Assembly (NCBI GenBank): GCA_963667725.2
Contig: CAXXHO010000005.1
Coordinates: 181,819-205,818 of the forward strand
Direction of reading: 5' to 3'
From: Treponemataceae bacterium
Lineage (GTDB): Bacteria > Spirochaetota > Spirochaetia > Treponematales > Rectinemataceae
DNA length: 24,000 bases
Both the position numbers and the translations under genes were made by a program. Below the pieces are notes generated by a model that saw only the letters and a program-made list of their open reading frames with translations, ran no database searches and was not told the origin of the DNA. Numbering within the stretch: position 1 is the first letter of the stretch; every line of letters begins with the position of its first letter. Below, in pieces: positions 2,291-24,000 of this stretch.

Positions 2291-2476
2291 GGGGCCTCGA
2301 ACGAAGCGGGTGCATCAGTGGAGACGTCTGGCCCAGAGTGTGCCACCGTATCTTCCCCTTTCGGGATCGCGAATCGGGAGAACAAGAAATTCTTGAGTCA
2401 GGAATCATCGAAACGACGATTTCCCCGTGACCCATTCCCGGGGCGCCTGTGGGAAAATCTATGCCTGGAGGCCCTC

Positions 2477-5616: not shown

Positions 5617-5700
5617 TGCGCTTCACAGAGCCTTCACACAGGCTCATCCTCCCTTCTTGAACGCGCGACATGCTTCCTCCATTCCTCATGGAGGCTGTTT

Positions 5701-7059
5701 ATGCGAAGAATCTTGCTCTGGAAGGGCCTGGCTGTGTTCGGGCTCGCGTTGTTGCTGCTCATTCCCCTGGCCATGATCCAGGGCCAGGTCGAGGCCCGGA
5801 ACCAGCGGCAAAAGGAGGTCAAGGCCAACGTCGCCGAGAGTGCGGCGGGCTGTCAGCAGGTGGTGGGGCCGCTGCTGGTGTTCACCTACACCGAGCGAGT
5901 GGAGGAGGCCGAGACCAACGAAAAGACCGGCCAGGTCACGCTGCGCACTCGAGAGATCCATGGCCATCAAATCCTGCCGCCCCAGGATCTCCAGATCCAA
6001 GGCGAGGCCCGGGTGGAGGAGCGCCATCGGGGCCTCTACAAGGCCCAGCTCTATCATCTGACGGCGCGGCTCACAGGCCGTTTCTCCCTGACGCCGAGTT
6101 TTGGCATGGATCTCTCGGGCCGCGCCATCACGCCCGGCCCCAGCTTCCTGGTGGTGGGCATTCCCGATCTGCGGGGCATCCACAACCGGCCCCAGGTCAA
6201 GTGGGAGGGCAGGGCCCTGGATTTCCGCCCGGGGGTTTCCCGGAGTCGCGTCCCCATGGGCATCCAGGCCGATCTGGGCACCCTGACCTTCCAGGACAAG
6301 AAGGACTTCGCCTTCGAGATTCCCCTGGAACTCACGGGCTCCCAGAGCCTTTCCTTCGCCCCGGTGGGCGAGAATACCCAGGTGTCCCTGCGCGCCAATT
6401 GGCCCAGCCCCAGCTTTGGGGGCCGATTCCTCCCATTGGATCACCAGGTTGGGGACAAGGGCTTCGAGGCCCAGTGGCAGGTCTCCAGCTTGGCCCGGAG
6501 CCTGGATTCCATCCTCAAGGTAGAAGGGCACGGACCCACCGAGGAGGCCTTCGACATCGCCTTTATCGAGCCGGTGAACATCTACCTGCAGACGGAACGG
6601 GCCGTGAAGTACGGCTTCCTCTTCGTGGGGTTGGTCTTCGCGGGGTTCTTCTTCTTCGAGCTGCTCCGGAAACTGCGGATCCATCCCATGCAGTACCTCC
6701 TGGTGGGTTTCGCCCTGGCGATGTTCTTCTTGCTGCTGCTGAGCCTCACCGAGCACATCCCCTTCCTGTGGGCCTACCTCGCGGCCAGCGCAGCCTGCAT
6801 TGCTCTGCTGGGTGCCTACCTGATCCATGTGCTCAAGAGTGTGGCCCATGGCCTTGGTTTCGCAGGGGGGACTCACGCTGCTCTTCGGCGTGCTCTACGG
6901 ACTCCTGATGTCCGAAGACAATGCGCTGCTGATGGGCTCGGTGCTCCTGTTCACGGCCTTGGCGGCGGTGATGCTGGCCACCCGAAAGCTGGATTGGTTA
7001 CGGCCTCTCGGGGAAAGAGAGTGGGGCCGAATAAGACGCAGGCCTCCTGGTTCTCGTAG
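5701..7059 (+). CDS. creD: Inner-membrane protein CreD-like; frameshifted near the 3' end, with the conserved C-terminus continuing in the +1 frame to 7120
   Basis: The 452-aa ORF begins MRRILLWKGLAVFGLALLLLIPLAMIQGQVEARN. It has internal CreD-type blocks (NWPSPSFGGRFLP, GFEAQWQVS, ERAVKYGFLFVGLVFAGFFFFELL, IHPMQYLLVGFALAMFFLLLLSLTEH). After the G6 run at 6865..6870 the annotated frame turns into low-complexity Arg/Ala/Gly sequence. The +1 frame (ORF 6827..7120) carries the expected LTLLFGVLYGLLMSEDNALLMGSVLLFTALAAVMLATRKLDW. Confidence 0.85.
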   Translation: MRRILLWKGLAVFGLALLLLIPLAMIQGQVEARNQRQKEVKANVAESAAGCQQVVGPLLVFTYTERVEEAETNEKTGQVTLRTREIHGHQILPPQDLQIQGEARVEERHRGLYKAQLYHLTARLTGRFSLTPSFGMDLSGRAITPGPSFLVVGIPDLRGIHNRPQVKWEGRALDFRPGVSRSRVPMGIQADLGTLTFQDKKDFAFEIPLELTGSQSLSFAPVGENTQVSLRANWPSPSFGGRFLPLDHQVGDKGFEAQWQVSSLARSLDSILKVEGHGPTEEAFDIAFIEPVNIYLQTERAVKYGFLFVGLVFAGFFFFELLRKLRIHPMQYLLVGFALAMFFLLLLSLTEHIPFLWAYLAASAACIALLGAYLIHVLKSVAHGLGFAGGTHAALRRALRTPDVRRQCAADGLGAPVHGLGGGDAGHPKAGLVTASRGKRVGPNKTQASWFS

Positions 7060-11357: not shown

Positions 11358-13458
11358 GGGTGGCCAGAAGGGCCACGCCGACATCGGCGATCACCGCTTC
11401 CCACATGTTCGCCTCGCCCGCCGCGCCGAGGATGAGGAAAGCGGCCTTCACCCCAAGGGCGAAAACGATATTCTGCATGACGATGCGCCTCGTGAAAACG
11501 GCGATTCTCATGGCGAGTGGAATGCGCCCGATCTCGTCGTCCATGATCACGATATCGGAAGCCTCGATGGCCGCGTCGGAGCCGAGGCCGCCCATCGCTA
11601 TTCCGAGGTCAGCCCTCATCAGGACGGGAGCGTCGTTCATGCCATCCCCAACGAAGACGACTTTTTTCCCGGCGGGAGCCGAGGCCTTCAAGGCCTCTAG
11701 CCGCGCGACCTTGTCTTCGGGCAGGAGGCCGGCGAAGTACTCGTCGACGCCTACCGCGGCCGCGATCTCCGCCGCCGTCGATTCCCTGTCTCCGGTGAGC
11801 ATGATGACGCGGCGGACCCCAAGGGACTTGAGTTGGCCCACAATTGAGGCCGCTTCATCCTTGAGTACGTCGGCGACGAGAATCTGGCCGGCGTAGGTTC
11901 CGTCGACAGCCACATGAACCAGGGTTCCCGCCCTCGTCATTCCGGCCTCGATCGCGATGCCCTCGTCTTTCAGGAAGCCTTCATTGCCCGCGAGCACTTT
12001 CCGGCCATCGACGATGGCTGATACGCCACGACCCTTCACTTCCCTCACCTCGCCAGCTCTGCTGGGCTCGCTTACTTCGCCGACCTCGCTTGTCTCACTC
12101 GCCGAACTCTGCCAGTCGGCATCGCTCGCCTTCCGAATCGCCCTGGCTATGGGATGCGGCGAATAACGCTCCGCGGCGGCCGCGTAGCGAAGCACCTGCT
12201 CGGCGCTGAATTCGTGGGCCGCGTCCACCTTCACCACCTCGAAGACGCCCTTCGTGAGCGTGCCCGTCTTGTCGAAGACGACCGTATCCACCTTGAGGAG
12301 AGCGTCGAGGCTGTTCGCGCCCTTGACGAGGATCTTGTGGCGGGAGGCGCTGCCCACGCCGCCGAAATAGCCCAGGGGAATGGATATGACAAGGGCGCAG
12401 GGGCAGGAAATGACGAGGAGGACGAGGGCGCGATAGAGCCAGTCTGAAAGCAGGGCGCCGGGGATGAGGAGCGGAGGAACGAAGGCGATGAGGGCGGCCG
12501 AAATGACGACGAAGGGCGTGTAGTAGGCCGCTACTTTCGTGATGAACTTTTCTGTCGGCGCCTTGTGCGTCGCCGCGTTTTCCACGAGATCGAGGATACG
12601 CGCCGCCGAGGACTGGCCGAAGGGAGCGGTCACCTCCACAAGAATCCGCCCCGTATCGGTGACATAGCCCGCCTTGACCGCTTCCCCGATGCCCACGGAC
12701 CGGGGCACGGCCTCGCCGGTGAGCGACGAGGTGTCCACGAAGGAATCGCCCTCGACGATGGTTCCGTCCAGAGGAATCCTCTCGCCGGGCCTCACCTCGA
12801 CGACATCGCCCACGATCACCTGTTCGGGATCGACGATCCTTCCTTGCCCGGCGGTGACGATGCGGGCGAACTCGGGCCGGAGGTTCATGAGGCGCGAAAT
12901 GGAGCTTCGCGATCTCGCCACGGCCCTTTCCTGCAGGTATTCGCCGACGGAATAGAAAAGCATGACCCCTACCGCTTCCGGCAGCTGCCCGATGGCGAAG
13001 GCTCCCACGGTGGCTATGGCCATGAGAAACATTTCGTTGAAAATCCTGCCGCGCAGAAGGTCCATCCAGGCGCTTCTAAGCACCGGATAGCCCACGAGGA
13101 GATATGCCGGAACGAGAACGACATATTCGGCGAAATCGCCCGCCGTCGCGCGCAACTGCCTTCCGAAGAGAACGCCTACCAGTAGGAGGACGGCCGACGC
13201 GATGATCCGCACGATGGACCAGGTTCCGAGGGATTCCTCTTTCTTCGGGGCGCCCGAATCGGCGCGCACAAGCTCAACGGATGGCTCGATGTTCCCGATA
13301 ATGTTCTTGGCCAGTTCCTCCGAATCGGCGTCGAGGGCTAAGGTCTTGGTAGCGAAATTGACGGTGGCGAATTCGAAACCCTTGTTCTTCCTCAGCTCAT
13401 TCTCGATTTTATTCGCGCAGTTGGCGCAGTCGAGACCTTTCATATAGTACTTCGTCAT
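11308..13458 (-). CDS. cadA: Heavy-metal translocating P1B-type ATPase (Cd/Zn/Pb type)
   Basis: 716 aa. The N-terminal HMA domain has a CxxC (GLDCANCANKIE). The TM CPC motif is ISCPCALVISIPL, the phosphorylation site is DKTGTLT, and the HP motif is SPHPIARAI. The hinge is GDGMNDAP. The last TM helix carries DVG (VIADVGVALLATLN), typical of the Zn/Cd/Pb subgroup. The gene sits downstream of a cadC-like repressor gene. Confidence 0.9.
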   Translation of the reverse strand: MTKYYMKGLDCANCANKIENELRKNKGFEFATVNFATKTLALDADSEELAKNIIGNIEPSVELVRADSGAPKKEESLGTWSIVRIIASAVLLLVGVLFGRQLRATAGDFAEYVVLVPAYLLVGYPVLRSAWMDLLRGRIFNEMFLMAIATVGAFAIGQLPEAVGVMLFYSVGEYLQERAVARSRSSISRLMNLRPEFARIVTAGQGRIVDPEQVIVGDVVEVRPGERIPLDGTIVEGDSFVDTSSLTGEAVPRSVGIGEAVKAGYVTDTGRILVEVTAPFGQSSAARILDLVENAATHKAPTEKFITKVAAYYTPFVVISAALIAFVPPLLIPGALLSDWLYRALVLLVISCPCALVISIPLGYFGGVGSASRHKILVKGANSLDALLKVDTVVFDKTGTLTKGVFEVVKVDAAHEFSAEQVLRYAAAAERYSPHPIARAIRKASDADWQSSASETSEVGEVSEPSRAGEVREVKGRGVSAIVDGRKVLAGNEGFLKDEGIAIEAGMTRAGTLVHVAVDGTYAGQILVADVLKDEAASIVGQLKSLGVRRVIMLTGDRESTAAEIAAAVGVDEYFAGLLPEDKVARLEALKASAPAGKKVVFVGDGMNDAPVLMRADLGIAMGGLGSDAAIEASDIVIMDDEIGRIPLAMRIAVFTRRIVMQNIVFALGVKAAFLILGAAGEANMWEAVIADVGVALLATLNSIRAAKFDSPRSPR

Positions 13459-13469
13459 TTTCCGCCTCG

Positions 13470-13820
13470 CTAAAGCTTCTCGATGTAGTGGTTTCTGGCG
13501 ATCTGCAGCAGTTCCAGCACATGGCTGTCGGAGAGGGCGTAGAACACCTGCTTGCCGTCCCGGCGCGAACGTACGAGGTTGAGGCTTCTCAGGAACCTCA
13601 GGTGATGGGAAATGGCCGGCAGATTGGTCTCCAGAAGGAAGGCGAGGTCGCAGACGCAGAGTTCCTGCTGCGACAGCAGGTAGAGAATCTTTATCCTCGA
13701 CTCATCGGCCATGGCCTTGAAAAGCTCGGAAAGCCCCGCCACGTCGAGGAGGGAATCCCTCAGCCGCGGCGCCTTGTCCTGACAAGAAATGCCGAACTGA
13801 CTGCAAACATCTTCATTCAT
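13470..13820 (-). CDS. cadC: ArsR/SmtB-family metalloregulator, CadC-like
   Basis: 116 aa. ELCVCDLAFLL plus HHLRFLRSLNLVRSRRDGKQVFYAL form the winged HTH. The N-terminal Cys pair (CSQFGISC) together with the CVC pair is the alpha3N thiolate-site arrangement known from pI258 CadC. The gene lies 11 nt upstream of the ATPase gene on the same strand. Confidence 0.85.
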   Translation of the reverse strand: MNEDVCSQFGISCQDKAPRLRDSLLDVAGLSELFKAMADESRIKILYLLSQQELCVCDLAFLLETNLPAISHHLRFLRSLNLVRSRRDGKQVFYALSDSHVLELLQIARNHYIEKL

Positions 13821-13844
13821 ATGGGCTCCATCGATCTATTCATA

Positions 13845-13874
13845 TAAACGATTGCTCAATTAAGCAATCGTTTA
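13845..13874. promoter_or_regulatory. Perfect 12-6-12 palindrome; candidate CadC/ArsR operator overlapping the cadCA promoter
   Basis: TAAACGATTGCT-caatta-AGCAATCGTTTA lies 25-54 nt upstream of the cadC ATG. On the minus strand a TTGCTT(-35-like) and TATATG/TATGAA(-10-like) pair brackets or overlaps the right arm. ArsR/SmtB repressors classically bind 12-2-12-type dyads over their own promoters. Confidence 0.5.
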
Positions 13875-14053
13875 ATCGTAAGATAACACTAGGTCCAATT
13901 CCTGTCAATATAGATTCCGCCGTCCCGGATTCTTGACAGGACATGAAGTGAGGCGACACAATGCGTTATCGATAAAAAAATGATCGAAAGCCCTACTCCG
14001 CGGCCTTTCTCGCGGCTCAGAGGGTTCCGCTCAACCACACAAGGAGGTTCTTC

Positions 14054-14851
14054 GTGCGAAAGATGACATTCATGCTTACGGTATTCGCCATGGTCTTCGC
14101 GATGGTCTTCGCCGCCGGCGCCCAAACCGCCAAGCTTCCCGACCTCAAGGGAAGAAAAATCATCGCCGTGACCGAAAACGCCTATCTCCCCCTCAATTTC
14201 GTCGACGCTAAATCAGGCAAGGCCATGGGATGGGAATACGACGCGGTGAACGAGATCGGCAAGCGTCTCAACGCCAAGATCGAGTGGAAGATCACTTCCT
14301 GGGACACCATGATCCAGGCCGTGCGCGACGGACAGTTCGACGTGGGCATGGACGGCATCACCATAACGGACGAAAGGAAGGGCCAGGTCGACTTCTCCAG
14401 CCCCTACATGGTGAGCCAGCAGTTCATGCTCGTGCGCGCCAGCGAAAACCGCTTCCAGGACGAAAAGGCCTTCTCGGCCAACCCCAAACTCCTCATCGGG
14501 GCCCAGGCGGGCACCACGAACTTCTATGTGGCCGTCTACAGCGTCCTCGACGGCGACGAAGCCAATCCCCGCATCAAGCTTTTCGAGACCTTCGGCGCCA
14601 CGGTCCAGGCCTTGATAGCCGGAGACATCGATATGGTGCTTATGGACGCCGCCTCCAGCAAGGGCTACATCGGCGCCTACCCCAACAAGCTGAAATCGGT
14701 CGGCGGCGCCCTCGGCACCGAAGAATTCGGATTCATCTTCAAGAAAGGTTCCGACCTCGTCGGCCCCTTCAACGCGGCCATCGCCGCCCTCAAGGCCGAG
14801 GGATTCCTCGACAGGCTTAACACGAAGTGGTTCTTCGAGTACAAGCCTTAA
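14054..14851 (+). CDS. Amino-acid ABC transporter substrate-binding protein (SBP_bac_3 family)
   Basis: 265 aa. AAGGAGG lies 6 nt upstream of the GTG at 14054 (an alternative ATG is at 14063). The signal peptide is MTFMLTVFAMVFAMVFAAGAQT. Family blocks include GWEYDAVNEIGKRLN, WDTMIQAVRDGQFDVGMDGITITDERK, VDFSSPY and LNTKWF. Confidence 0.9.
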   Translation: MRKMTFMLTVFAMVFAMVFAAGAQTAKLPDLKGRKIIAVTENAYLPLNFVDAKSGKAMGWEYDAVNEIGKRLNAKIEWKITSWDTMIQAVRDGQFDVGMDGITITDERKGQVDFSSPYMVSQQFMLVRASENRFQDEKAFSANPKLLIGAQAGTTNFYVAVYSVLDGDEANPRIKLFETFGATVQALIAGDIDMVLMDAASSKGYIGAYPNKLKSVGGALGTEEFGFIFKKGSDLVGPFNAAIAALKAEGFLDRLNTKWFFEYKP

Positions 14852-14903: not shown

Positions 14904-14945
14904 CCCTGTCTGTGCCAGTAATGGCACAGACAGGGGATTTTCTGT
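14904..14945 (+). terminator. Rho-independent terminator after the amino-acid binding-protein gene
   Basis: A perfect 14-bp stem CCCTGTCTGTGCCA / TGGCACAGACAGGG with a GTAA loop, followed by GATTTTCT. It lies 53 nt after the stop codon. Confidence 0.75.
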
Positions 14946-15082
14946 GCTAAATAATGAACATAGAATTTAAAAATAAGCGAAGCACCCTACGCATTGGCTT
15001 TTCGGGCAGGACGCCGTATCGGCAATTTATTTCATGGAATGAAAATAGCACATTGCTAGATTCACTGCTTTGGTCAGGCTCT

Positions 15083-15098
15083 TGGCATGGGCTTTGCT
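15083..15098 (+). promoter_or_regulatory. Sigma-54 (-24/-12) promoter
   Basis: TGGCAT-gggct-TTGCT matches TGGCAC-N5-TTGCW with correct GG-to-GC spacing (12 nt). It sits in an AT-rich 290-nt intergenic region, 44 nt upstream of the ATG at 15142 (RBS AAGGAGG at 15128..15134). A sigma-54 activator is encoded in the same cluster. Confidence 0.7.
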
Positions 15099-15141
15099 AT
15101 TGCTACCTTGAGTTTCCAGATTATCTTAAGGAGGTTTCTAC

Positions 15142-16074
15142 ATGAAACGAATCGTTGGCGTTCTTTTGTGCGCGTTGGTGCTGATAACCGGTGTTTCCGC
15201 CCAAGCCAAGAAGAAGCAGGTCGCCGTCTGTCTTCCTGGATCAGTCGAGTTCTTCGCCGTGGAGCGCAAAGGCATGGACAAGGCAGCCGCCGAGTTCAAC
15301 CTTCAGCTCACCTATTCCGACGCCGAATGGGACGCGGGAAAACAACTGAACCAGGTGGAGAATTTCGTGGCCAAGGGCGTGGACGCCATCATGCTCTGCT
15401 CCCGCGATCCTCTCGCCCTGCTTCCGGCGGTAAAAATGTGCAACGAAGCCAAGATCCCCCTCATTACGTTCACCAACACGCTCGGCTCCGACAAGAACGG
15501 ACAGTATCCCGGCGTCGTTACCTTCATTGGCATCAACGACCTCTCCTATGGCACCATGATGGGCAAGATGGCCAAACAGCTCCTGGGCGACAGAGCCGCG
15601 AACATCGTCCTCATCGAGGGTGAGCCTGGAACCAGCGCCCAGCGCATGAGAAACGACGGTTTCAGGGCCGAACTCGCGAACAGCAAGTACAAGATCATCT
15701 ACAGCCAGGCGATTCCCGGCTGGACCAAGGAAGGATCGCTCGCCGCCATGGAAGCCTTTCTCCAGAAAGGACAGGATTTCGATCTCGTCTCAGCCGAATG
15801 GACGGACGGCGCGGTCGCGGCTGCCAAAGCCATCAGGGAAGCCGGACTCAAGGGGAAATACATCACCGCCCTCGAGTATTCCAAGGCGCTCCAGGCCGAG
15901 ATCAAGGCTGGAAGCGTCAACATGACGGCCTACGCTTCCATCATAGACATGGGTTATCTGGCAGTCCAGAAAACCGCCGAATTCCTCTCCGGAAAGAAGA
16001 TCGATTCCTACATCGAAGTCATTCCCGTCATCGTCGACAAGAACAATGTGAGCAAACACGTTCCCGAGATGTGA
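15142..16074 (+). CDS. Sugar ABC transporter periplasmic binding protein (RbsB/PBP type-1 family)
   Basis: 310 aa. The signal peptide is MKRIVGVLLCALVLITGVSAQA. Blocks typical of ribose/monosaccharide binding proteins are present: VENFVAKGVDAIML, EAKIPLITF, IVLIEGEPGTSAQRMRNDGF, AMEAFLQK, GAVAAAKAIREAGL. Confidence 0.9.
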   Translation: MKRIVGVLLCALVLITGVSAQAKKKQVAVCLPGSVEFFAVERKGMDKAAAEFNLQLTYSDAEWDAGKQLNQVENFVAKGVDAIMLCSRDPLALLPAVKMCNEAKIPLITFTNTLGSDKNGQYPGVVTFIGINDLSYGTMMGKMAKQLLGDRAANIVLIEGEPGTSAQRMRNDGFRAELANSKYKIIYSQAIPGWTKEGSLAAMEAFLQKGQDFDLVSAEWTDGAVAAAKAIREAGLKGKYITALEYSKALQAEIKAGSVNMTAYASIIDMGYLAVQKTAEFLSGKKIDSYIEVIPVIVDKNNVSKHVPEM

Positions 16075-16092
16075 TCCCATCCTCCAACAGTC

Positions 16093-16124
16093 GGCGGGGA
16101 ATCCGCTTCGGTGGATTCCCCGCC
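16093..16124 (+). other. Intercistronic GC-rich stem-loop (no U-tract)
   Basis: GGCGGGGAATCC-gcttcggt-GGATTCCCCGCC has a perfect 12-bp stem. It lies between the binding-protein stop (16074) and the next ATG (16140). No T-run follows, so it is more likely an mRNA-stabilising or partial-attenuation element than a full terminator. Confidence 0.5.
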
Positions 16125-16139
16125 GCTCAAGAGAAAACA

Positions 16140-17405
16140 ATGGAACCTAAATCGATACGAAACGGCGGTAAAATCGCCGCGCAGCTGATGGTCGGCCCCG
16201 AACAGCTGGCCTATTTCGGCGAAGCCGGAATACTGGCATGTCTGGACTATGCGCTCGATGTCCTCGCTCCCCGGGAGCTGATTCTTTCCATAACCGATTC
16301 ATCGAGCGACCTGGCTCGAAAGATCACGGAGCGCTGTGACAAGGTGGGTACAAGGGTTTCTCTATGGGTGATGGTTTTCGCCGACCGCCCCGCCGGCCTG
16401 TCTTCTTTTCCCCATGTCCAGGACGCTGAAGGCAGGACGGGATACGGCGCCACCGGCGCCTGGGAGAATATCGGAAAGGGCGACGAAAAGTTCCTATTCT
16501 ATTGTCCCAGCGCCCTGGATAAGGACGAGAAAGGCATAGAATCCGCGCTTCGGGCGGCGAAATCCATTGGCGCGCGGGGCATCTTCCTCGACCGGATACG
16601 ATACCCCTCCCCCGCCAACGGCTTCGAATTCATGAGCGCCTGTTCCTGCCCCCTATGCAGGGAAGCCTTTCGCGCCTGGAGCGGCGAAAAATGGCCAGAC
16701 CTAGCTTCGCTCTTTGTCCGGCATGCGGCTCATGGCGTCGGCGGCCCTCAAGCCTTCGTCGAGAGCGCCGAGAAAGTACTTCAATTCCGCTCGCGGATGG
16801 TCAATAACGCGGTGGCGCGTTACGCCGATGCCGCTCACGCGGAGGGCCTCAGCGTCGGTCTGGATCTCTTCGCGCCCGCGTTGGCCGGTTTCGTCGGCCA
16901 AGATTATCATTCACTGTCGCGCCACGCGGATTTCATGAAACCGATGCTCTACTGCAAAGCCTGGGCGCCGGCAGGCATGCCCCTGGAATTTTTCCTTTTA
17001 ATGAAGGGGCTTGAAGAATCAGGCATCGACGCATCAACAGCCGTAAGCTTCGTTTCCAAGTTCTCCGGAATAGACCGAGAATACCTGGATGCCGTGCGCC
17101 GGAAAGGAAATTTCCCGGCTTCGCTCGCCGCATCAGAACTGCTCCGCTGTCAGCGGGAAATAGATCCCGCAGCGGCTCCAAAACCAGAAATCTACGCGGG
17201 CATCGAGCTGGTTCAGCACGAAGCCTACGATACTCAAATCGACGACGGTGTACGCGACTCGTACCTGGAAAGCCTCTCGGGCCAAAACATCGCCGTATGC
17301 TGGAATATATTGTACGTGCCCAAGCGGCATATCGAGGCGATAGCCTCGATGGACGCTATCGCGTCGATCGACGCGATTTCACCGCATCACGAGGACTCTA
17401 AATGA
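16140..17405 (+). CDS. Uncharacterised cytoplasmic protein, possibly a glycoside-hydrolase-like (beta/alpha)8 barrel
   Basis: The real start is the ATG at 16140 inside ORF 15798..17405 (421 aa). There is no signal peptide and no TM segments. ARGIFLDRIRYPSPANGFEFMSACSCPLCREAF resembles the G-x-x-x-D-Y-I-R-F/Y-P strand-4 block of DUF4015/GHL-type putative glycosidases, followed by a CxCxxC cluster. Its stop overlaps the ATPase start (ATGA at 17402). The function call is weak. Confidence 0.75.
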   Translation: MEPKSIRNGGKIAAQLMVGPEQLAYFGEAGILACLDYALDVLAPRELILSITDSSSDLARKITERCDKVGTRVSLWVMVFADRPAGLSSFPHVQDAEGRTGYGATGAWENIGKGDEKFLFYCPSALDKDEKGIESALRAAKSIGARGIFLDRIRYPSPANGFEFMSACSCPLCREAFRAWSGEKWPDLASLFVRHAAHGVGGPQAFVESAEKVLQFRSRMVNNAVARYADAAHAEGLSVGLDLFAPALAGFVGQDYHSLSRHADFMKPMLYCKAWAPAGMPLEFFLLMKGLEESGIDASTAVSFVSKFSGIDREYLDAVRRKGNFPASLAASELLRCQREIDPAAAPKPEIYAGIELVQHEAYDTQIDDGVRDSYLESLSGQNIAVCWNILYVPKRHIEAIASMDAIASIDAISPHHEDSK

Positions 17406-18946
17406 ACATTCAAGAAAATTTGCGAACGCCAGAGGGCGGAAATGCGGCTGCCCCTCCCGTCATTCTCGCGATGAAGAACATTTCAAAAAGCTTCCTGGGC
17501 GTCCGGGTATTGGACAACGTCGATTTCTATCTCAGAAAAGGCGAAGTCGTCGCTTTTCTCGGCGCCAACGGAGCGGGAAAATCGACGCTCATGAAGATTC
17601 TCTCCGGCGTCTATAACGCGGACAGCGGCCAGATATTCCTTCACGACAAACCGGTTCAATTCAGCAAACCGATCCATGCCTACAGGGCGGGAATCAGCGT
17701 CGTGCACCAGGAATCGAGCCTCATTCCCACCCTGACCATCATCGAAAATCTATTTCTCGGCCGTGAATCCACAAAGGGTTCGGGGATACTGAACGGCAAG
17801 CTCATGCAAGCTGAATACGAAAAGCTCTGCGAACGTTTCGATTTGGATATTCCCTCCGCGACGAAGGTACGCGATCTCAGCCCCGCGCAGAAAAAAATGG
17901 CCGAGATAATGAAGGCGGTGTCGCGCAACTGCAGCATCATCATAATGGATGAGCCCACCGACGCTCTCAGCTCCCAGGAAACCGCCCTCCTGTTCAAAAC
18001 CGTCGGTGACCTTAGGCGCGAGGGCATGAGCATCGTTTTCATAACGCATTTTCTGGACGAAGTAAAAAGCATCGCCGACAGCGCGACGGTGATCCGCGAC
18101 GGGAAAATAGTCGCCGAGCGCGTCTCGCCTCTTCTGCCGATCAAGGAAATAGTCACCTTGATGCTCGGCAAGGAAGTGGCGGAACGAAAACCCTTCGTAA
18201 GGGCTCATGGCGAAAAGGAAGAGCTGGTGGTAAAGAACCTCGGCCGCCGCGCCGAATTTTCGGATATTTCATTCGAACTTCACGCGGGCGAAGTGCTCGG
18301 AATCGCCGGCGTCGTGGGATCGGGCAAGACGGAACTGGCGAGGACACTCTCAGGCGCATCGGTCAGCCACAGCGGTTCCATGACACTGGAGAACAGACCG
18401 ATACAGCTCCGTTCCCCATACGATGGGGTCAAGCATGGTATCGGCATGGCGCCGGAAGACCGTAAAACGCAGGGACTGATCCTCGACCATGACATTCAAG
18501 GCAATATTTCCCTTTCATCCCTGCCCAGCATCGTCAAGTTCGGATGCATCAACGCAAAAAAGGAAAAAAGCCGTACGATGTCTGTGGCCGCCCAACTTTC
18601 GATAAAGTTCGCCAGCCTTGATCAGCGGGTAAAATTCCTGAGCGGCGGCAACCAGCAGAAATGCGTTCTGGCTCGATGGCTGCTGGCCTCCCCGAAGGTT
18701 CTTATTCTGGATGAGCCCACGCGCGGCATCGATGTCGCCACGAAGGAACAGATCTACGCGACGGTGCGCGATCTCGCGTCGAAAGGAAAATCCATCATCT
18801 ATTTCTCTGGAGATCCCGCCGAACTCCTTGTGGTCTCCGACAGGGTGTTGGTTATGCAAAAAGGGAAGATCAAGCGTTCTTACGCGATTCCGCCATCTGA
18901 AGATATACTACTAAAAGATATGATTGAGGTGAACAATGAGCGGTAA
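17402..18946 (+). CDS. Sugar ABC transporter ATP-binding protein with tandem NBDs (CUT2, RbsA/MglA-like)
   Basis: 514 aa. NBD1 has GANGAGKST, AGISVVHQESSLIPTLTIIENLFLGR, LSPAQKKMAEI, IIIMDEPTDALS and FITH. NBD2 has GVVGSGKTELA, LSGGNQQKCVLARWL and LILDEPTRGIDV. Confidence 0.95.
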   Translation: MNIQENLRTPEGGNAAAPPVILAMKNISKSFLGVRVLDNVDFYLRKGEVVAFLGANGAGKSTLMKILSGVYNADSGQIFLHDKPVQFSKPIHAYRAGISVVHQESSLIPTLTIIENLFLGRESTKGSGILNGKLMQAEYEKLCERFDLDIPSATKVRDLSPAQKKMAEIMKAVSRNCSIIIMDEPTDALSSQETALLFKTVGDLRREGMSIVFITHFLDEVKSIADSATVIRDGKIVAERVSPLLPIKEIVTLMLGKEVAERKPFVRAHGEKEELVVKNLGRRAEFSDISFELHAGEVLGIAGVVGSGKTELARTLSGASVSHSGSMTLENRPIQLRSPYDGVKHGIGMAPEDRKTQGLILDHDIQGNISLSSLPSIVKFGCINAKKEKSRTMSVAAQLSIKFASLDQRVKFLSGGNQQKCVLARWLLASPKVLILDEPTRGIDVATKEQIYATVRDLASKGKSIIYFSGDPAELLVVSDRVLVMQKGKIKRSYAIPPSEDILLKDMIEVNNER

Positions 18947-19946
18947 CAATATCGATGCTAAGGCAGCGGCAACCATTCAAGCGGGCGGTATGGATGCCTC
19001 AAAGAAGAGGGGGCAGTACTACAAAGAAATTTTAAAACGCTACGGCCTGCTCATCAGCTTCTTTGTGCTCTCGCTGGGGATATCCCTGCTGACGCCCAAC
19101 TTCCTCTCCTCCAGGAACCTGCTCAACATCCTCAGGCAGAGTACGATCGTCGGCATCATGGCCATAGGCACCACCTTCGTCATCATCGGTGGCGGATTCG
19201 ATATCTCGGTCGGATCGGTGCTTGCCTTGTCCGCGGCGTTGGCGCTCGGGCTCCAAGGCTCGATGCACTGGGCCTTGGCCGCCACGATCGCTATCCTCGC
19301 CGGCGCGCTGATAGGTCTCTTCAATGGTATTCTCGCCGCGAAGATTCACATCGTTCCCATGATTGCGACGTTGGGTACCTCCACCATCGTACGCGGCCTC
19401 GTCTACCTCTATACCGGCGGCTACCCCATCAACGGTCAGCAGCCAGCCTTCGAGGTGATCGGCTCCGGCTATCTGTGGGGCATCCCCGTACCCGTCATCA
19501 TAATGATCGCGCTTGTCGTCATTTTTCAATTCATTCTCTCCAAGACGCAGCTCGGCCGCTACTGCTGCGCCGTCGGCGGCAACAAGGAAGCGACGAGGCT
19601 CGCCGGCGTCTCCGTGGACTTCTACCACGTCATGACTTTCCTCATCGGCGGTCTCATGGCGGGCATCTCGGGCGTCGTCTATGCGTCGCGGCTTTCGTCG
19701 GCCACGCCCCTAGCGGGGCAGAATTACGACATGGACGCCATCGCGGCGGTGGTCATCGGCGGCACATCGGTTTCAGGCGGCGAAGGCACGGTTCTCGGCG
19801 CCATGATAGGCGTCCTTCTTCTCACCGTCGTCACCAACGCCTTCAATCTCCTCGGCGTGCCGGTCTTCATCCAGTACGTCATAAAGGGCCTGATCATCCT
19901 GGTCGTCGTGGGCATCGACTCCTACTCCAAGAAGAGGCCCCGCTAA
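18936..19946 (+). CDS. Sugar ABC transporter permease (RbsC/BPD_transp_2 family)
   Basis: 336 aa. It overlaps the ATPase stop by 11 nt and has ~10 hydrophobic segments. Family blocks include NLLNILRQSTIVGIMAIGTTFVIIGGGFDISVGS, TLGTSTIVRGL, GGNKEATRLAGV and DAIAAVVIGGTSVSGGEGTV. Confidence 0.9.
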   Translation: MSGNNIDAKAAATIQAGGMDASKKRGQYYKEILKRYGLLISFFVLSLGISLLTPNFLSSRNLLNILRQSTIVGIMAIGTTFVIIGGGFDISVGSVLALSAALALGLQGSMHWALAATIAILAGALIGLFNGILAAKIHIVPMIATLGTSTIVRGLVYLYTGGYPINGQQPAFEVIGSGYLWGIPVPVIIMIALVVIFQFILSKTQLGRYCCAVGGNKEATRLAGVSVDFYHVMTFLIGGLMAGISGVVYASRLSSATPLAGQNYDMDAIAAVVIGGTSVSGGEGTVLGAMIGVLLLTVVTNAFNLLGVPVFIQYVIKGLIILVVVGIDSYSKKRPR

Positions 19947-19997
19947 GCGATTCGCCTTTGTCCTTTCGAGCCAAATGGTATACACTGGCGGCACGGT

Positions 19998-21377
19998 ATG
20001 AAAACGAAGGTACTTATCGTCGACGACGAGCAGCCCATGAGGGCTTCGCTCGGCGAACTCTTGCAGAGTGAAGGCTACCAGACGATGTTGGCGGACGGCG
20101 CATCTTCCGCGCTCGAACAGACCAGCGACGGCCATCCCGACATAGCCATCGTGGACGTGCGCATGCCGGGCCGCGGCGGCCTAGACCTCATCCAGGAGCT
20201 CCGCGATATATCCCCCAACCTCAGGATTTTCATGATGACAGGCTACCCGTCCGTGGAAACCGCGGTGTTGGCCATGAAATACGGCGCAATGGACTTTTTC
20301 ACCAAGCCGCTGGATTTCAGGAAGCTGCGTGACCAGCTGAATCAATGCAAAATGGCAGGCGCCAATCAGCAGCCGGAAACGCCCAATCATGCCGTCGGCG
20401 CCCTCTACGGAGAAAGCCTGGTCATTCGCGAACTGCGGGAATCGATCGAGCGCATCGCCCCCACGGAAGCCTCCGTCATCATCACGGGCGAAAGCGGCAC
20501 GGGAAAAGAATTAGTAGCCGAAGCCATACACAGCCAATCACTGCGTTCCGCCCATCCTTTCATGAAGATCAACTGCGCGGCGATACCTGACACACTTCTC
20601 GAAAGCGAGCTGTTCGGCTATGAAAAAGGTGCCTTCACGGGCGCTCTTGCCCGAAAAGCGGGGCTTTTCGAAAGCGCCAGTCAGGGCAGCGTCTTCCTCG
20701 ATGAAATCGGGGATATGGACATCCGCCTTCAGTCGAAACTCCTTCATATACTTCAGGGAGGGGAATTCCGCAGGTTGGGCGGCACAAAGGACCTCAACGC
20801 CAATACCCGGATCATATCGGCGACCAACCAGAACCTGCATACGCTCATCGAAAAAGGCATGTTCAGGGAAGACCTTTATTACCGGCTCTCGGTGATATGC
20901 ATCCAGACTCCCCCGCTTCGCGAGCATATAGAGGACATTCCCGCGCTCGCGAAACGCTTCGTCGCCGATTTTTCGCGTTCATACGGCAAGGAAGAACCCC
21001 TCATCGACGATGAGTTCCTGGCTATCCTCGAGGCGCAGCCCTGGCCCGGAAATGTCCGTGAGCTGAAAAACTGCATCGAGCGCGCCATCATCTTCTGTGA
21101 CGGTCGCCATCTCGGCACTCGCCATCTTCCGCAGCAGTACAAGATGGGAATTGGCAGAAATGTGGTCGTTTCCTGTCTCGATGAATCGAAGGAATCGGAT
21201 GCATCCCGGAATTCGATGAGCGAGGCGCGGCAGGACCTGGAACGCAGCATGATTCTTGAAGCGCTCGACAAGGCAAAGGGAAACAGGACGGAGGCCGCCA
21301 GGCTGCTTGGAATACCGCGACGAACCCTCTATAACAAGCTCGAAAGGCTTGGCATGGACGACGATGCAAGGTCTTGA
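19998..21377 (+). CDS. Sigma-54-dependent response regulator (NtrC family: REC, AAA+, Fis-type HTH)
   Basis: 459 aa. The REC domain reads VLIVDDEQPMR...IAIVDVRMPGRGGL...KPL. The AAA+ domain has GESGTGKELVAEAIH, the GAFTGA loop (EKGAFTGA), VFLDEIGDM and RVIS-type RIISATN. The C-terminal HTH is GNRTEAARLLGIPRRTLYNKLERLG. Confidence 0.95.
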   Translation: MKTKVLIVDDEQPMRASLGELLQSEGYQTMLADGASSALEQTSDGHPDIAIVDVRMPGRGGLDLIQELRDISPNLRIFMMTGYPSVETAVLAMKYGAMDFFTKPLDFRKLRDQLNQCKMAGANQQPETPNHAVGALYGESLVIRELRESIERIAPTEASVIITGESGTGKELVAEAIHSQSLRSAHPFMKINCAAIPDTLLESELFGYEKGAFTGALARKAGLFESASQGSVFLDEIGDMDIRLQSKLLHILQGGEFRRLGGTKDLNANTRIISATNQNLHTLIEKGMFREDLYYRLSVICIQTPPLREHIEDIPALAKRFVADFSRSYGKEEPLIDDEFLAILEAQPWPGNVRELKNCIERAIIFCDGRHLGTRHLPQQYKMGIGRNVVVSCLDESKESDASRNSMSEARQDLERSMILEALDKAKGNRTEAARLLGIPRRTLYNKLERLGMDDDARS

Positions 21378-23238
21378 GCTCCGTGGCGTCACGGCTTCCT
21401 ACAGGGAGACGATAGCCCTCGATGAGTTCAGCCTGATAGCGGCGAGCGGCGAAGTGCATGCCATCATCGGGGAACGCAGGGCGGGAAAATCATGTATCGT
21501 TTCCCTCCTCGAAGGAAAGATGACCCTCAATAAAGGCAAGATTCTCATCGATGGCATCCCCCTGGCGAAACGCAATCCAAAGATTATGGCCCAGGCTGGT
21601 ATTGGCGTTTTCCATCAAACGCAAAACATCATTCCCACACTTTTGCCCTGGGAAAACATCATGGCCGGGAGGATGCCCATCGGTTTTTCATCGGGCAACA
21701 AGCGCGATGAAACTGAGGCCTTTATCCTGACGCTCTGCGAAAAGTGGAGTCTCCGTCCAGATCTGCGCCTGCCTATGCATCGACTGACGAGAATAGAATC
21801 CACCGTTATCGAGCTTGGGCGAGCCTTGGCGTTCAATCCAAGGATCCTTATCCTGGATGAGCCTTCCGGTCGCTTTACCGCCGATGAGATGCAGGTCCTC
21901 TATTCCGTGCTGGCGGAAAGGCGGAGCGGCAATGAGGCAGTTCTCTATGCGGCCTCCAATGTCGACGAGGTGCTGAGGATCGCCGATATCATCTCGATTA
22001 TAAAAGCGGGGAAAATTGTGGAAACCCAGCCGGCAAGAAGCCTGGACCGAGAGGACATTGTCGATCTCGCCTATTCTTTCAACGAGTCGAGGGAAGAGCT
22101 GTTCAGCAAGAACATTCGCCTGTTGAAATACAAGAAGTACAATGAGGAAATAGTCTCCAATCTCCCGCTGGGAACGGTCTTTTTCGACGGGGAAGGCGAA
22201 ATATACCTTTCCAATCAATCAGCCTGCGACATTATCTGCACGGATCCAAAAACGTTGATTCCCGCGTCAAAGGCGGGAGAACCTGCTGCGGCGATTCCAC
22301 TTACCGCCTTGGCGCTGCGGAATGGTTTCGGCGATAAACGACTGGCGCTGATCATGGATTCCATAAGATCGGGAGTATCGGCGAAATGGAAACAGTGGCC
22401 GACGGCAAACGGCAGATTCGTCAACGTGATGACCTACCCCTTCCACGATAGTTTGAAGCAGCTATTCGGAACCATCCTCGTACTTCAGGACGTAACGGAA
22501 GAGAGGGCGACGCGGGACTATCTGGCAAGCCTTGACCGAACTTCGTCCATCGCCCAGCTGGCGACGGGCATAGTTCACGAAGTGAACAATCCTCTCGGCA
22601 TCATTTCCAACTATGTGGAACTCCTGCTCATGAAGACAAACGACGAGTATGCTCGTGAAAGGCTCGAAATTATCCGAAATGAAATAAAGCGAATTCATGG
22701 AAGCATGCTCAATCTCCTGTCCTTTTCGAGCGTCGATTCGTCAGCATTGAGCCCGCATGACATCAACGCGGTCATCAAGGATTCGCTTGTCCTGCTTGAA
22801 TACGAAGCGGAACGTCTCGGCATCAGCCTGGAAGCTGATATACCTAGCGAACCGGTGATGCTGCGCATAGATCCCGCCAGAATCAAACAAGTCCTGATCA
22901 ATCTCCTCATGAATGCGCTCGATGTTGCGGGACGATGTGGTTCCATAGTAGTCCGACTTCGAAAGCAGGCCGATAATAGCGCCCTCCTGCAGGTACAGGA
23001 CAGCGGCCCCGGCATCCCGCCCGCCAAGATCGCCAGTCTTTTCACGCCCTTCCTGAGCGAAAAAAGCGGAAGCGGACATGCCGGACTTGGTCTTTCAATC
23101 TGCAAGCATATAACGGAAGTCCATGGCGGCAGGATTTGGTGCGAAAGCGAACCGGGCAATACCGTCTTTTTCATTGAACTACCCTGCGAGGGACCAATGC
23201 AGGTAAAAGGACCGCATTATGCGCAGACCGCGAATTAA
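21364..23238 (+). CDS. Soluble sensor histidine kinase with an N-terminal ABC-ATPase-like (CUT2 NBD1-type, degenerate) domain, then PAS, HisKA and HATPase_c
   Basis: The start is the ATG at 21364 inside ORF 21256..23238 (624 aa); it overlaps the regulator stop by 14 nt. Residues 1-~235 are colinear with NBD1 of the ATPase at 17402. Examples: GEVHAIIGERRAGKS vs GEVVAFLGANGAGKS; AGIGVFHQTQNIIPTLLPWENIMAGR vs AGISVVHQESSLIPTLTIIENLFLGR; ILILDEPSGRFTADE vs IIIMDEPTDALSSQE. A PAS-like region spans aa ~255-385. The H-box is IVHEVNNPLGII, the N box LINLLMNALDV, G1 VQDSGPGIP and G2 GHAGLGLSI. I saw no hydrophobic TM segment. Confidence 0.9.
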   Translation: MQGLELRGVTASYRETIALDEFSLIAASGEVHAIIGERRAGKSCIVSLLEGKMTLNKGKILIDGIPLAKRNPKIMAQAGIGVFHQTQNIIPTLLPWENIMAGRMPIGFSSGNKRDETEAFILTLCEKWSLRPDLRLPMHRLTRIESTVIELGRALAFNPRILILDEPSGRFTADEMQVLYSVLAERRSGNEAVLYAASNVDEVLRIADIISIIKAGKIVETQPARSLDREDIVDLAYSFNESREELFSKNIRLLKYKKYNEEIVSNLPLGTVFFDGEGEIYLSNQSACDIICTDPKTLIPASKAGEPAAAIPLTALALRNGFGDKRLALIMDSIRSGVSAKWKQWPTANGRFVNVMTYPFHDSLKQLFGTILVLQDVTEERATRDYLASLDRTSSIAQLATGIVHEVNNPLGIISNYVELLLMKTNDEYARERLEIIRNEIKRIHGSMLNLLSFSSVDSSALSPHDINAVIKDSLVLLEYEAERLGISLEADIPSEPVMLRIDPARIKQVLINLLMNALDVAGRCGSIVVRLRKQADNSALLQVQDSGPGIPPAKIASLFTPFLSEKSGSGHAGLGLSICKHITEVHGGRIWCESEPGNTVFFIELPCEGPMQVKGPHYAQTAN

Positions 23239-24000
23239 GCAGACGGCGCTGGATCGCATCCCCTGGTGGCTCGTCGCCATCGTAGGCCTAGGGGGCTGGC
23301 TCCTCGCGTCCGCCATGGCCACGGCCGATTATCGCGTCATATTCGGCGCCGTATCCCGCGGCCTCGGCGTCACGCTGATGGTATCGCTCATCGCGTATGC
23401 CGCATCGATACTGTTCGGTCTAGGGCTGGGGCTTCTGCGCGCTTCGCGGCTTCGCGCCGCACGCGAAGCCGCGACCTTCTACATCGAGCTGGTACGCGGC
23501 CTTCCAATGCTCGTCATTCTGTACTACATAGCATTCGTTGGCGCTCCCGCCCTAGCTCAAGCGCTCAACGTCATCCTGACCCCACTCATCGCGACGGGGC
23601 TCATCGGCCGCGTCGAAGCGCGCAGCTTCGATTTCGCCACGCGCGCCGTCCTGGCCCTCACCCTCGGCTACTCGGCTTTCATCGCGGAAATCTTCCGCGC
23701 GGGCATAGAGAGCGTGGACAAAGGCCAGGTCGAAGCCGCCGAAGCCCTCGGGATGTCACATCTTCAGGTGATGTGCCGCATCGTTCTGCCCCAAGCCATC
23801 AAGAATGTCCTGCCCGCCCTCGGCAACGAATTCGTCGCCATCATCAAGGATTCCTCCCTGGTCTCGGCCCTCGGCGTCCAGGATATCACCCAGCTGGGCA
23901 AGGTCTATGCCGCGTCCACTTTCAAATTTTTCGAGACTTACAACGCCGTCGCGTTCTTCTACCTCTGCCTCACGCTCAGCCTATCCCTTCTCGTGCGAGC
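23219..24000 (+). CDS. Amino-acid ABC transporter permease (HisM/GlnP family), 3'-partial
   Basis: This gene is absent from the ORF track because it runs off the window. From the ATG at 23219 the translation reads MRRPRIKQTALDRIPWWLVAIVGLGGW...FYIELVRGLPMLVILYYIAF...AFIAEIFRAGIESVDKGQVEAAEALGMSHLQVMCRIVLPQAIKNVLPALGNEFVAIIKDSSLVSALGVQDIT. This contains the EAA loop and polar-amino-acid permease blocks. It overlaps the kinase stop by 20 nt. Confidence 0.85.
   Translation, partial: MRRPRIKQTALDRIPWWLVAIVGLGGWLLASAMATADYRVIFGAVSRGLGVTLMVSLIAYAASILFGLGLGLLRASRLRAAREAATFYIELVRGLPMLVILYYIAFVGAPALAQALNVILTPLIATGLIGRVEARSFDFATRAVLALTLGYSAFIAEIFRAGIESVDKGQVEAAEALGMSHLQVMCRIVLPQAIKNVLPALGNEFVAIIKDSSLVSALGVQDITQLGKVYAASTFKFFETYNAVAFFYLCLTLSLSLLVR

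Follow-up and report, generated by a model that had tools for sequence, protein, structure and literature searches.

Trigger transporters, which also serve as sensors, are a recognised route from transport to gene control, and in every described case known to us the kinase is either a membrane protein that works beside the transporter or is fused to a membrane translocator. Here we describe a locus of another build in a 24,000-nucleotide stretch of DNA from a Treponemataceae bacterium (positions 181,819 to 205,818 of contig CAXXHO010000005.1, GenBank assembly GCA_963667725.2), which as a whole is called the window below. The locus encodes a sugar importer of the CUT2 class of ATP-binding cassette (ABC) transporters, a TIM-barrel protein, an NtrC-type sigma-54 activator and a soluble histidine kinase of 624 residues, the N-terminal input domain of which is an ABC nucleotide-binding domain (NBD). 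An earlier note on this DNA, made from its letters alone, had proposed that this kinase reads the state of the transporter at the cytoplasmic face of the membrane. The module is best filed as transporter-coupled two-component signalling with a new input-domain architecture, and a comparison with the closest described systems shows where it departs from them.

In the Pst-PhoU-PhoR and MalK-MalT systems, an ABC ATPase subunit conveys the activity of the transporter to a regulator. What they share with the present locus is that the state of an importer is read at the cytoplasmic ATPase face, which for our kinase is a proposal; the difference is that their regulator binds the transporter's own NBD, directly or via PhoU, whereas the kinase described here carries an NBD of its own. 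The histidine kinase KdpD has an ATP-binding input domain of P-loop-like type at its N-terminus, and its kinase core is found among the structural matches of our kinase model. In both proteins the kinase core is preceded by a nucleotide-binding domain with Walker motifs, which in KdpD modulates the core. However, KdpD-N is not an ABC NBD, KdpD is anchored in the membrane, and its link to the KdpFABC pump is regulatory. In the co-sensor systems ChvE-VirA, LuxP-LuxQ and TorT-TorS, a binding protein of the Peripla_BP type gives a two-component system its chemical specificity, a role that we propose for the binding protein of this locus as well; but those kinases span the membrane and bind their partner in the periplasm, which the present kinase cannot reach.

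In Bce-type modules (BceAB-BceRS) an ABC transporter does the sensing on behalf of a histidine kinase, a mode described as flux sensing (PMC3023708, PMC9169098). The likeness lies in a kinase without a ligand-binding sensor of its own and in an adjacently encoded ABC transporter that is the target of the regulation and is needed for sensing (in our case, as proposed). BceS, however, is embedded in the membrane, where it binds the permease BceB, and its transporter is of the resistance type, whereas our locus combines a soluble kinase, a covalently fused NBD, a binding-protein-dependent importer and a sigma-54 output. Neither a two-helix intramembrane kinase nor a BceB-type permease with a large extracellular domain is encoded here, the permease being of the BPD_transp_2 family, and the resemblance to Bce modules is functional only. 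CbrA and CrbS are symporter-kinase fusions (PMC7096432, PMC5715377). They too unite a transporter-derived domain and a PAS/HisKA/HATPase_c kinase in one polypeptide, and CbrA partners a sigma-54 activator, CbrB. The fused part is, however, the membrane translocator of a secondary transporter (SLC5/STAC), whereas our kinase carries the soluble ATPase domain of a primary transporter, of the ABC type; here a separate and complete transporter is retained, and there is no SLC5/STAC part. The kinase core is closest to AtoS/NtrB-type kinases and its partner is an AtoC-like sigma-54 activator, a likeness reflected in the JGI label AtoS; but AtoS has transmembrane and HAMP parts, which are absent here, and no NBD. 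An identity with AtoS was rejected, as NCBIfam model NF008468 matched residues 252-609 alone and reached 195 bits against a cut-off of 646.

The earlier note had described a kinase with neither a transmembrane nor a periplasmic sensor, and this is what we find: no hydrophobic segment is present, the maximum Kyte-Doolittle value being 1.28. The note had also staked its reading on a match of the kinase N-terminus to the ABC_tran profile (PF00005), which matches residues 20-168 with 58.3 bits against a cut-off of 25; HisKA (39.1 bits) and HATPase_c (93.7 bits) likewise exceed their cut-offs. The CUT2 ATPase models AraG, YtfR and XylG match residues 4-237 with 108-126 bits, and in BLASTP comparisons with the ATPase of the same operon the N-terminus aligns to NBD1 with 28% identity (E 8e-28) and to NBD2 with 25% identity (E 1e-12). 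The NBD of the kinase ends exactly where a CUT2 NBD1 ends, LVDLAYSF being aligned to IVTLMLG. In an AlphaFold 2 (AF2) model with a mean predicted local distance difference test score (pLDDT) of 80, and of about 90 in the NBD, the protein consists of five domains, namely the NBD (residues 1-237), a linker helix (244-265), a PAS-like domain (270-376), the dimerisation and histidine phosphotransfer domain (DHp, 378-452) and the catalytic domain (463-608).

According to a Foldseek analysis, the N-terminal third resembles isolated NBDs (LptB, with a TMt of 0.84, LivF-like structures and 1ji0; the TMt values of LptB and the LivF-like structures lie at 0.77-0.84), while the C-terminal two-thirds resemble the PAS-kinases YF1 (4gcz), 8a6x, ThkA (3a0r) and ZraS (9jfj), and also HK853; no entry in the PDB spans both halves. 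Pfam matches to PAS are present in kinase homologues, and conservation in the kinase is lowest in the PAS region, which carries large insertions and deletions. The core is that of a class I (HisKA) kinase, with the phospho-acceptor H405 in the motif H405-E-x-N-N-P and with the N, G1, F and G2 boxes; its invariant residues include this H405 motif, N513, N517, D546-x-G-x-G and G574-L-G-L. The partner is an NtrC-type activator composed of Response_reg (9.6e-28), Sigma54_activat (6.3e-68) and, at the C-terminus, HTH_8 (3.9e-15) domains. Its translation contains the phospho-acceptor D53 and the motif EKGAFTGA, and it scores 422 bits with the AtoC model (cut-off 714), no equivalog cut-off being reached.

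The ATP site of the kinase NBD comprises a Walker A motif (GERRAGKS, residues 36-43, window 21469-21492), a Q-loop glutamine (Q85) and a Walker B motif (ILILDE, with D165-E166). A canonical LSGGQ signature and the H-loop histidine are missing: the signature is degenerate (RLTRIEST) and S198 stands at the H-loop position. Degeneracy of the signature is typical of CUT2 NBD1 domains, and the operon's own NBD1 reads DLSPAQKK. We counted the motifs in 57 members of the kinase family (56 for the Walker A lysine). The Walker A lysine is found in 56/56, the Q-loop glutamine and the Walker B aspartate each in 57/57 and the catalytic glutamate in 55/57, and the signature motif of the family is RLSxxEQ-like. 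This conservation suggests that selection has kept the binding of nucleotide and Mg. The H-loop histidine is retained in 20 of the 57 members, all of them deep-branching, and the remaining 37 have Ser, Thr, Asn or Gln in its place; no member of the window clade has it. Because this histidine is lost and the signature is degenerate, ATP hydrolysis is probably slow in the window clade. In H-loop mutants of HlyB and MalK, nucleotide binding combined with slow hydrolysis favours a long-lived ATP-closed dimer, and by analogy the NBD pair of the window-clade kinases may favour the same state. Altogether we consider it probable that the kinase NBD is a nucleotide-dependent input. In nearly all members Walker A follows the pattern GE[RH]R[AS]GKS, with an arginine where ABC ATPases have the middle glycine, which is a hallmark of the family.

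Where does this domain come from? The earlier note had called it a copy of NBD1 of the operon's own ATPase. In a neighbour-joining tree (Poisson distances, 200 bootstraps) of kinase NBDs, cognate and unrelated CUT2 NBD1s and NBD2s, the kinase NBDs group with NBD1 and are split from NBD2 in 200/200 bootstraps, and they are monophyletic in 158/200. The domain is therefore of genuine CUT2 NBD1 type, as the note had it, but it is not a copy taken from its own ATPase: the window kinase NBD is 28% identical to the NBD1 of its own operon, which ranks 11th among 20 NBD1s, and up to 33% identical to unrelated CUT2 ATPases. This low identity and rank, together with the separate kinase-NBD clade, rule out a recent duplication of the neighbouring NBD1. 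Monophyly and low identity to the operon's NBD1 indicate instead that the fusion is ancient and probably goes back to a single event.

To see how constant the neighbourhood of the kinase is, 80 metagenome loci were examined systematically by tblastn. A sigma-54 response regulator lies immediately upstream of the kinase in all 60 informative loci. A CUT2 component was found in 51 of the 80 loci, and in each of the 11 loci that offer at least 5 kb on both sides; the 29 loci without a CUT2 match are all cut short on one side. For comparison we used 77 unrelated NtrB/AtoS-like kinase loci, which came from a contig scan for HisKA/HATPase patterns in which L001-L003 alone were members of the family. 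In these controls, which stem from other phyla, a CUT2 permease or binding protein was present in 1/77 and a CUT2 ATPase in 0/77. The recurrent adjacency of NBD-PAS-kinase genes to CUT2 transporters and sigma-54 activators, which had been set beforehand as a check on the proposal, is borne out by these counts.

The relative placement of the genes varies. Of the 51 positive loci, 28 have the CUT2 genes divergently upstream of the kinase, 13 have them downstream on its own strand and 6 downstream on the other one; in 3 they lie upstream on the same strand, the order seen in the window, and one case is mixed. The linkage persists in at least four gene arrangements and in distant members. The earlier note had envisaged a positive feedback loop in which the activator drives its own operon. 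Such a loop by read-through from the transporter genes into the regulatory genes does not carry over to the family, since the collinear order is confined to those 3 of 51 loci and most regulator-kinase pairs are divergent or upstream. Among the loci inspected by hand, the window order recurs in L081 and L089, the divergent order in L083, L087, L171 and one JGI contig, and the regulator-kinase pair comes first in L085 and L086; L001 and L002 are further linked cases. In every locus inspected in this way the kinase directly follows the sigma-54 response regulator and a CUT2 transporter adjoins. In L003 (2423-14681, Spirochaetota) two complete systems of regulator, NBD-kinase and CUT2 transporter stand back to back, and each has a -24/-12 element to itself; in L170 a regulator-kinase pair is set among four CUT2 sets.

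The accessory genes differ from locus to locus and include the unnamed barrel protein, URO-D, a GDSL lipase, and GatZ with PfkB, which indicates that the substrates differ while the class of transporter stays CUT2. The flanking genes change from one locus to the next, which hints at movement of the cassette as a whole. In L081, a relative with 52% identity, an IS630-type transposase gene (DDE_3 and a helix-turn-helix domain, 11890-12854) lies right behind the kinase gene. Each complete locus has a transport ATPase of its own. L099 appeared at first sight to be an exception in which the kinase might replace the transport ATPase; this was rejected, as the locus encodes a single-NBD ATPase of 284 residues (5130-5984) in place of the fused two-NBD protein. 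GatZ-like and PfkB genes follow this single-NBD ATPase gene, and suggest that L099 serves a catabolism of the tagatose or galactitol type.

A sigma-54-type element had been noted before the transporter genes, and it is confirmed as sequence. The element TGGCATgggctTTGCT (TGGCAT-N5-TTGCT) precedes the ATG of the binding-protein gene by 59 nt and is the sole exact match to TGGCAY-N5-TTGCW on both strands of the 24 kb, with 0.10 expected by chance. Relatives with a strict -24/-12 match have one per locus, always 50-75 nt ahead of the first gene of the transporter, and the remaining loci show relaxed matches; strict and relaxed elements together lie 50-130 nt upstream of that gene. In the metagenome set, 32 of the 52 regions that precede the first detected transporter gene contain a GG/GC pair with at least 10 of 11 consensus positions, as against 0 of 52 control regions, and nearly all operons led by a binding-protein gene carry such an element.

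Further upstream there are two candidate activator sites. Site 1 is the only TGTG-N10-CACA in the window (0.19 expected), and site 2, TGTGCTAAATAATGAACA, differs from this pattern by one mismatch. Pairs of TGTG-N10-CACA dyads recur in the window clade with a separation of 30-33 bp, about 110-190 nt upstream of the -24 element: at -174 and -142 in L081, -174 and -141 in L089, -172 and -139 in L091, -192 and -160 in L093, and -140 and -110 in L083. In the distant clade, GGGRA...TYCCC dyads take their place. Site 1 is enclosed by a perfect hairpin with a T-rich tail, likely the terminator of the upstream SBP_bac_3 gene. As this hairpin is 100% conserved in L089 amid variable flanks, one sequence may serve two functions, those of terminator and activator site. 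By its GG/GC spacing, its placement upstream of the operon and the dyads beyond it, the region has the make-up of a sigma-54 promoter. We hold it to be very probable that the response regulator and the soluble kinase form a pair acting on this adjacent promoter of the CUT2/barrel operon.

The architecture of the kinase, its gene linkage, the conservation of the promoter and that of the ATP-binding residues are demonstrated by these comparisons. Our proposal for how the parts work together is as follows. The two NBDs of a kinase dimer would bind ATP and close as a sandwich dimer like in a transporter, with poor hydrolysis in the window clade. Their opening and closing would be relayed via the helix 244-265 and the PAS-like domain to the DHp helices, and would switch the autophosphorylation of H405 and hence the phosphorylation of D53 of the activator. 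The activator would act on the adjacent sigma-54 promoter with its two upstream dyads and drive expression of the CUT2 importer and the barrel enzyme. The link to sugar would most likely arise where the NBD pair docks on the CUT2 permease dimer, at its coupling helices, and there replaces or alternates with the transport ATPase, so that docking of the sugar-loaded binding protein outside is read inside. In the permease, which is presumably homodimeric because the cassette has a single permease gene, the loop 'GGNKEATRLAGV' is the coupling-helix candidate. In MalK dimers the C-terminal ends of the NBDs meet beneath the dimer, and the coiled coil of the kinase would begin where such C-termini meet, a geometry that is compatible with docking by analogy. 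Docking of the kinase NBD on the permease is plausible, although we put it forward tentatively.

In its most pointed form the proposal describes a "signalling ATPase": a soluble kinase dimer plugs its NBDs into the permease instead of the ATPase, and the binding protein and the permease become a transmembrane receptor. Once the binding protein docks outside with its sugar, the NBDs inside would close in an ATP-dependent manner, and the kinase would be switched. We regard this form as possible but rather doubtful. The broader view, in which the locus is a self-contained module for the uptake of a sugar, its catabolism and the control of both, and in which the NBD pair couples to the transporter, we consider to fall just short of an even chance. 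Several points count against such a coupling or limit the case for it. We compared the distances of the kinase NBDs with those of their potential partners in 19 complete loci (mirror-tree comparison), and the correlation is highest with the kinase core (r 0.90), followed by the regulator (0.79), the ATPase (0.69), the permease (0.47) and the binding protein (0.46). There is no excess co-evolution of NBD and permease in these 19 loci, although a strongly conserved coupling helix would give the same result, and we do not count the comparison as evidence against contact. Since every complete locus keeps its ATPase, the kinase would face competition from it or have to take turns with it. Loci such as L003 and L170, with several CUT2 systems, would face cross-talk if the NBD recognised a generic CUT2 permease; the Walker A arginine might alter nucleotide binding; and the PAS-like domain could be the actual sensor of a ligand.

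Could the NBD work without the permease? The mirror-tree result weakens the case for a specific co-evolving interface and keeps two other explanations alive. In one of them the NBD is an autonomous ATP/ADP energy sensor or an ATP-dependent dimerisation module that does not contact the transporter, the PAS-like domain senses the sugar or a product of the barrel enzyme, and the linkage to CUT2 genes reflects regulation and inheritance. The residues of the ATP site are conserved while nothing in the present data calls for a membrane partner, the kinase is soluble, every member has the PAS-like domain, the NBD distances track the kinase core rather than the permease, and two-component systems often adjoin the operon that they regulate, all of which this explanation would accommodate. 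It leaves unexplained, however, why a CUT2 NBD1 was chosen as input, and in no locus with full flanks (the 11 and those inspected by hand) is the kinase paired with another class of sugar transporter, despite rearrangements and changes of substrates and accessory enzymes; the PAS region, moreover, is the part that varies most, as noted above. We consider it unlikely, if still worth serious attention. The other explanation makes the transport ATPase the partner, in that the kinase NBD pairs with it in a hetero-NBD sandwich or is captured by it in a MalK-MalT-like manner, and the activity of the kinase would distinguish an idle from a cycling ATPase. Head-to-tail dimerisation is inherent to NBDs, MalT is held captive by MalK as long as the maltose transporter rests, the distances of the NBD correlate better with the ATPase than with the permease, and the single-NBD ATPase of L099 must itself dimerise. 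Yet the fused NBDs of the ATPase in most loci leave no partner site free, and a dimeric kinase already supplies two NBDs, and we judge a partnership with the ATPase to be improbable.

Very improbable, in our view, is that the NBD is a relic, i.e. a folded N-terminal cap or dimerisation surface without nucleotide function, or else a true motor of the transporter. The degenerate signature and the loss of the H-loop histidine in the window clade could be read in this way, and the sources label the proteins merely 'AtoS' or 'ATP-binding protein'. However, the Walker A lysine, the Q-loop glutamine and the Walker B Asp-Glu pair are preserved across members down to 29% identity, which speaks against a relic, and a dedicated transport ATPase in every complete locus speaks against a motor.

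The transporter itself has the components of a CUT2 (TC 3.A.1.2) importer, namely a Peripla_BP_4 protein with a signal peptide, a fused two-NBD ATPase and a BPD_transp_2 permease. RbsABC, the ribose transporter, was considered and rejected as its identity, because all three components miss the equivalog cut-offs. RbsB, the best NCBIfam model for the binding protein, gives 97 bits (cut-off 337); the ATPase scores 460-475 bits with the XylG, RbsA and AraG models, each time under the equivalog cut-off (462 vs. 745 for RbsA); and the permease reaches 266 bits with RbsC (cut-off 398).

The barrel protein has about 140 homologue clusters, every one of them labelled 'hypothetical'. Its AF2 model is a (beta/alpha)8 barrel with a pLDDT of 91, for which Foldseek returned only weak matches (TM score of 0.49 at most) to GH18, GH14, GH66 and GH168 barrels and to sugar isomerases. 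No match came from searching the PDB with a sequence profile, and we assign no enzyme class. Invariant residues are C122, C168, C170 and C173 as well as several acidic residues, and the set of four cysteines is a possible metal site. The protein is kept within the cassette in L081, L083, L085, L089, L091, L093 and L120. It appears to be a cytoplasmic protein resembling glycoside hydrolases or sugar enzymes, and is a candidate carbohydrate-active enzyme. The gene of a distant homologue (L172, 7001-8182) is translationally coupled to that of a PFK-family kinase and stands beside GH3 genes.

All seven elements claimed for the locus, the promoter and six genes, were recovered on the forward strand in the open reading frame listing and in Pfam and NCBIfam scans (Table 1). 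The packing is as close as had been described: the six co-directional genes are separated by gaps of 65 nt (binding protein/barrel protein) and 51 nt (permease/activator) or overlap by 4 nt (barrel protein/ATPase), 11 nt (ATPase/permease) and 14 nt (activator/kinase). In the 51-nt gap before the regulator-kinase pair (19947-19997) no sigma-70-like promoter was found.

Table 1. Coordinates of the locus and of the adjoining features in the window
Feature	Position	Strand	Basis or remark
SBP_bac_3 gene upstream of the cassette	14054-14851		
Perfect hairpin with 14-bp arms and T-rich tail	14904-14935	+	
Candidate activator site 1, TGTGCC-N6-GGCACA	14911-14928		172 nt upstream of the -24 element
Candidate activator site 2, TGTGCTAAATAATGAACA	14943-14960	+	140 nt upstream of the -24 element; 32 bp after site 1
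TGGCATgggctTTGCT, predicted sigma-54-type -24/-12 promoter element	15083-15098	+	pattern match, conserved in relatives
Binding protein, CUT2 type	15142-16074	+	Peripla_BP_4 1.5e-48; signal peptide
Intercistronic RNA hairpin, 15-bp stem, no U-tract	16092-16125	+	folding energy and compensatory changes
TIM-barrel protein, unnamed family	16140-17405	+	no Pfam/NCBIfam family
CUT2 ATPase, two fused NBDs	17402-18946	+	ABC_tran twice, 2.3e-55
CUT2 permease	18936-19946	+	BPD_transp_2; 9 hydrophobic segments
NtrC-type activator (response regulator)	19998-21377	+	receiver domain, Sigma54_activat and HTH_8
Kinase, 624 residues	21364-23238	+	ABC_tran, HisKA and HATPase_c above cut-offs
Kinase: ABC NBD of CUT2 NBD1 type	21364-22074	+	residues 1-237
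Kinase: linker helix 244-265 and PAS-like domain 270-376	22093-22491	+	residues 244-376; AF2, Foldseek
Kinase: DHp and catalytic ATP-binding domain	22495-23238	+	residues 378-624; HisKA, HATPase_c
Start of polar-amino-acid ABC permease gene (BPD_transp_1)	23219-24000, runs past the window edge	+	

The earlier note had seen no terminator between the promoter and the end of the kinase gene. This picture needs correcting in that a very stable and conserved hairpin, which has no U-tract, sits between the binding-protein and barrel genes. Its folding energy is -36 kcal/mol (z -6.8), none of 200 shuffled sequences was equally stable, and the stem is maintained by compensatory changes in L089, L091 and L081. 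It is likely an mRNA-stabilising or attenuating element and probably sets the ratio of binding-protein mRNA to the mRNA of the membrane components. A hairpin after the binding-protein gene is a classic layout, which by analogy would yield more binding-protein mRNA than distal genes, or a partial attenuation.

At the other end, the BPD_transp_1 gene starts inside the kinase gene and overlaps its 3' end by 20 nt, so that the transcription unit may extend past 23238. This permease gene lies outside the sugar module, although co-transcription with it is possible. In L089 (region 11866-14595), a relative with 89% identity, an asparagine-synthase gene and spacers separate the kinase gene from the BPD_transp_1 permease gene; about 1.9 kb have been deleted in the window or inserted in L089, and the last eight or so codons of the kinase are rewritten. 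In both, the sugar cassette is flanked by the SBP_bac_3 gene and the BPD_transp_1 permease gene, as if inserted into an operon for amino-acid transport. Other signalling genes lie upstream in the window: a hybrid PAS-kinase-receiver gene on the reverse strand (515-2290), and a HAMP kinase gene (3706-5616) followed by that of a CreD-like membrane protein (5701-7059). An open reading frame of 672 codons (1496-3514) has AIR-synthase-related domains confined to residues 386-668, and towards its 5' end it overlaps the antisense kinase frame; its true start is probably much further downstream.

How widespread is the fusion? Proteins that combine ABC_tran, HisKA and HATPase_c, with or without a PAS match, form 53 clusters at 90% identity, with identities down to 29%. 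The named sources of these clusters are Rectinemataceae, Spirochaetia and Spirochaetota, and the labels on the named clusters read 'AtoS', 'ATP-binding protein' or 'hypothetical'. In a profile search of 1.84 billion representatives, the best 150 matches are nearly all full-length proteins of about 600 residues. As rank 150 still scores 366 bits, the kinase family comprises more than 140 full-length clusters at 50% identity. A metagenome scan with a family-specific stretch preceding Walker A retrieved 162 relatives of the kinase. No NCBIfam model covers the NBD-kinase fusion, and a literature search turned up no account of it; domain tables do show the architecture, though it is unnamed and unstudied.

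What is new is a large and conserved family of soluble kinases that use the ATPase domain of an ABC importer as input and that have stayed beside CUT2 transporters through rearrangements, and this looks like an undescribed wiring of a transporter to gene control. It also means that hundreds of genes labelled 'AtoS' or 'ATP-binding protein' are mis-described. The barrel protein marks an uncharacterised family of putative sugar enzymes, the substrate of which the module could reveal. If the NBD reads the transporter, the kinase would offer a separable system for studying how the docking of a binding protein reaches NBD closure in ABC importers, a model for how tweezers-like motion of NBDs gates a histidine kinase, and a natural template for the engineering of sugar biosensors. 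Should the "signalling ATPase" prove true, these spirochaetes would have transmembrane signalling without a membrane-spanning signalling protein, and the first use of ABC mechanochemistry as a two-component sensor.

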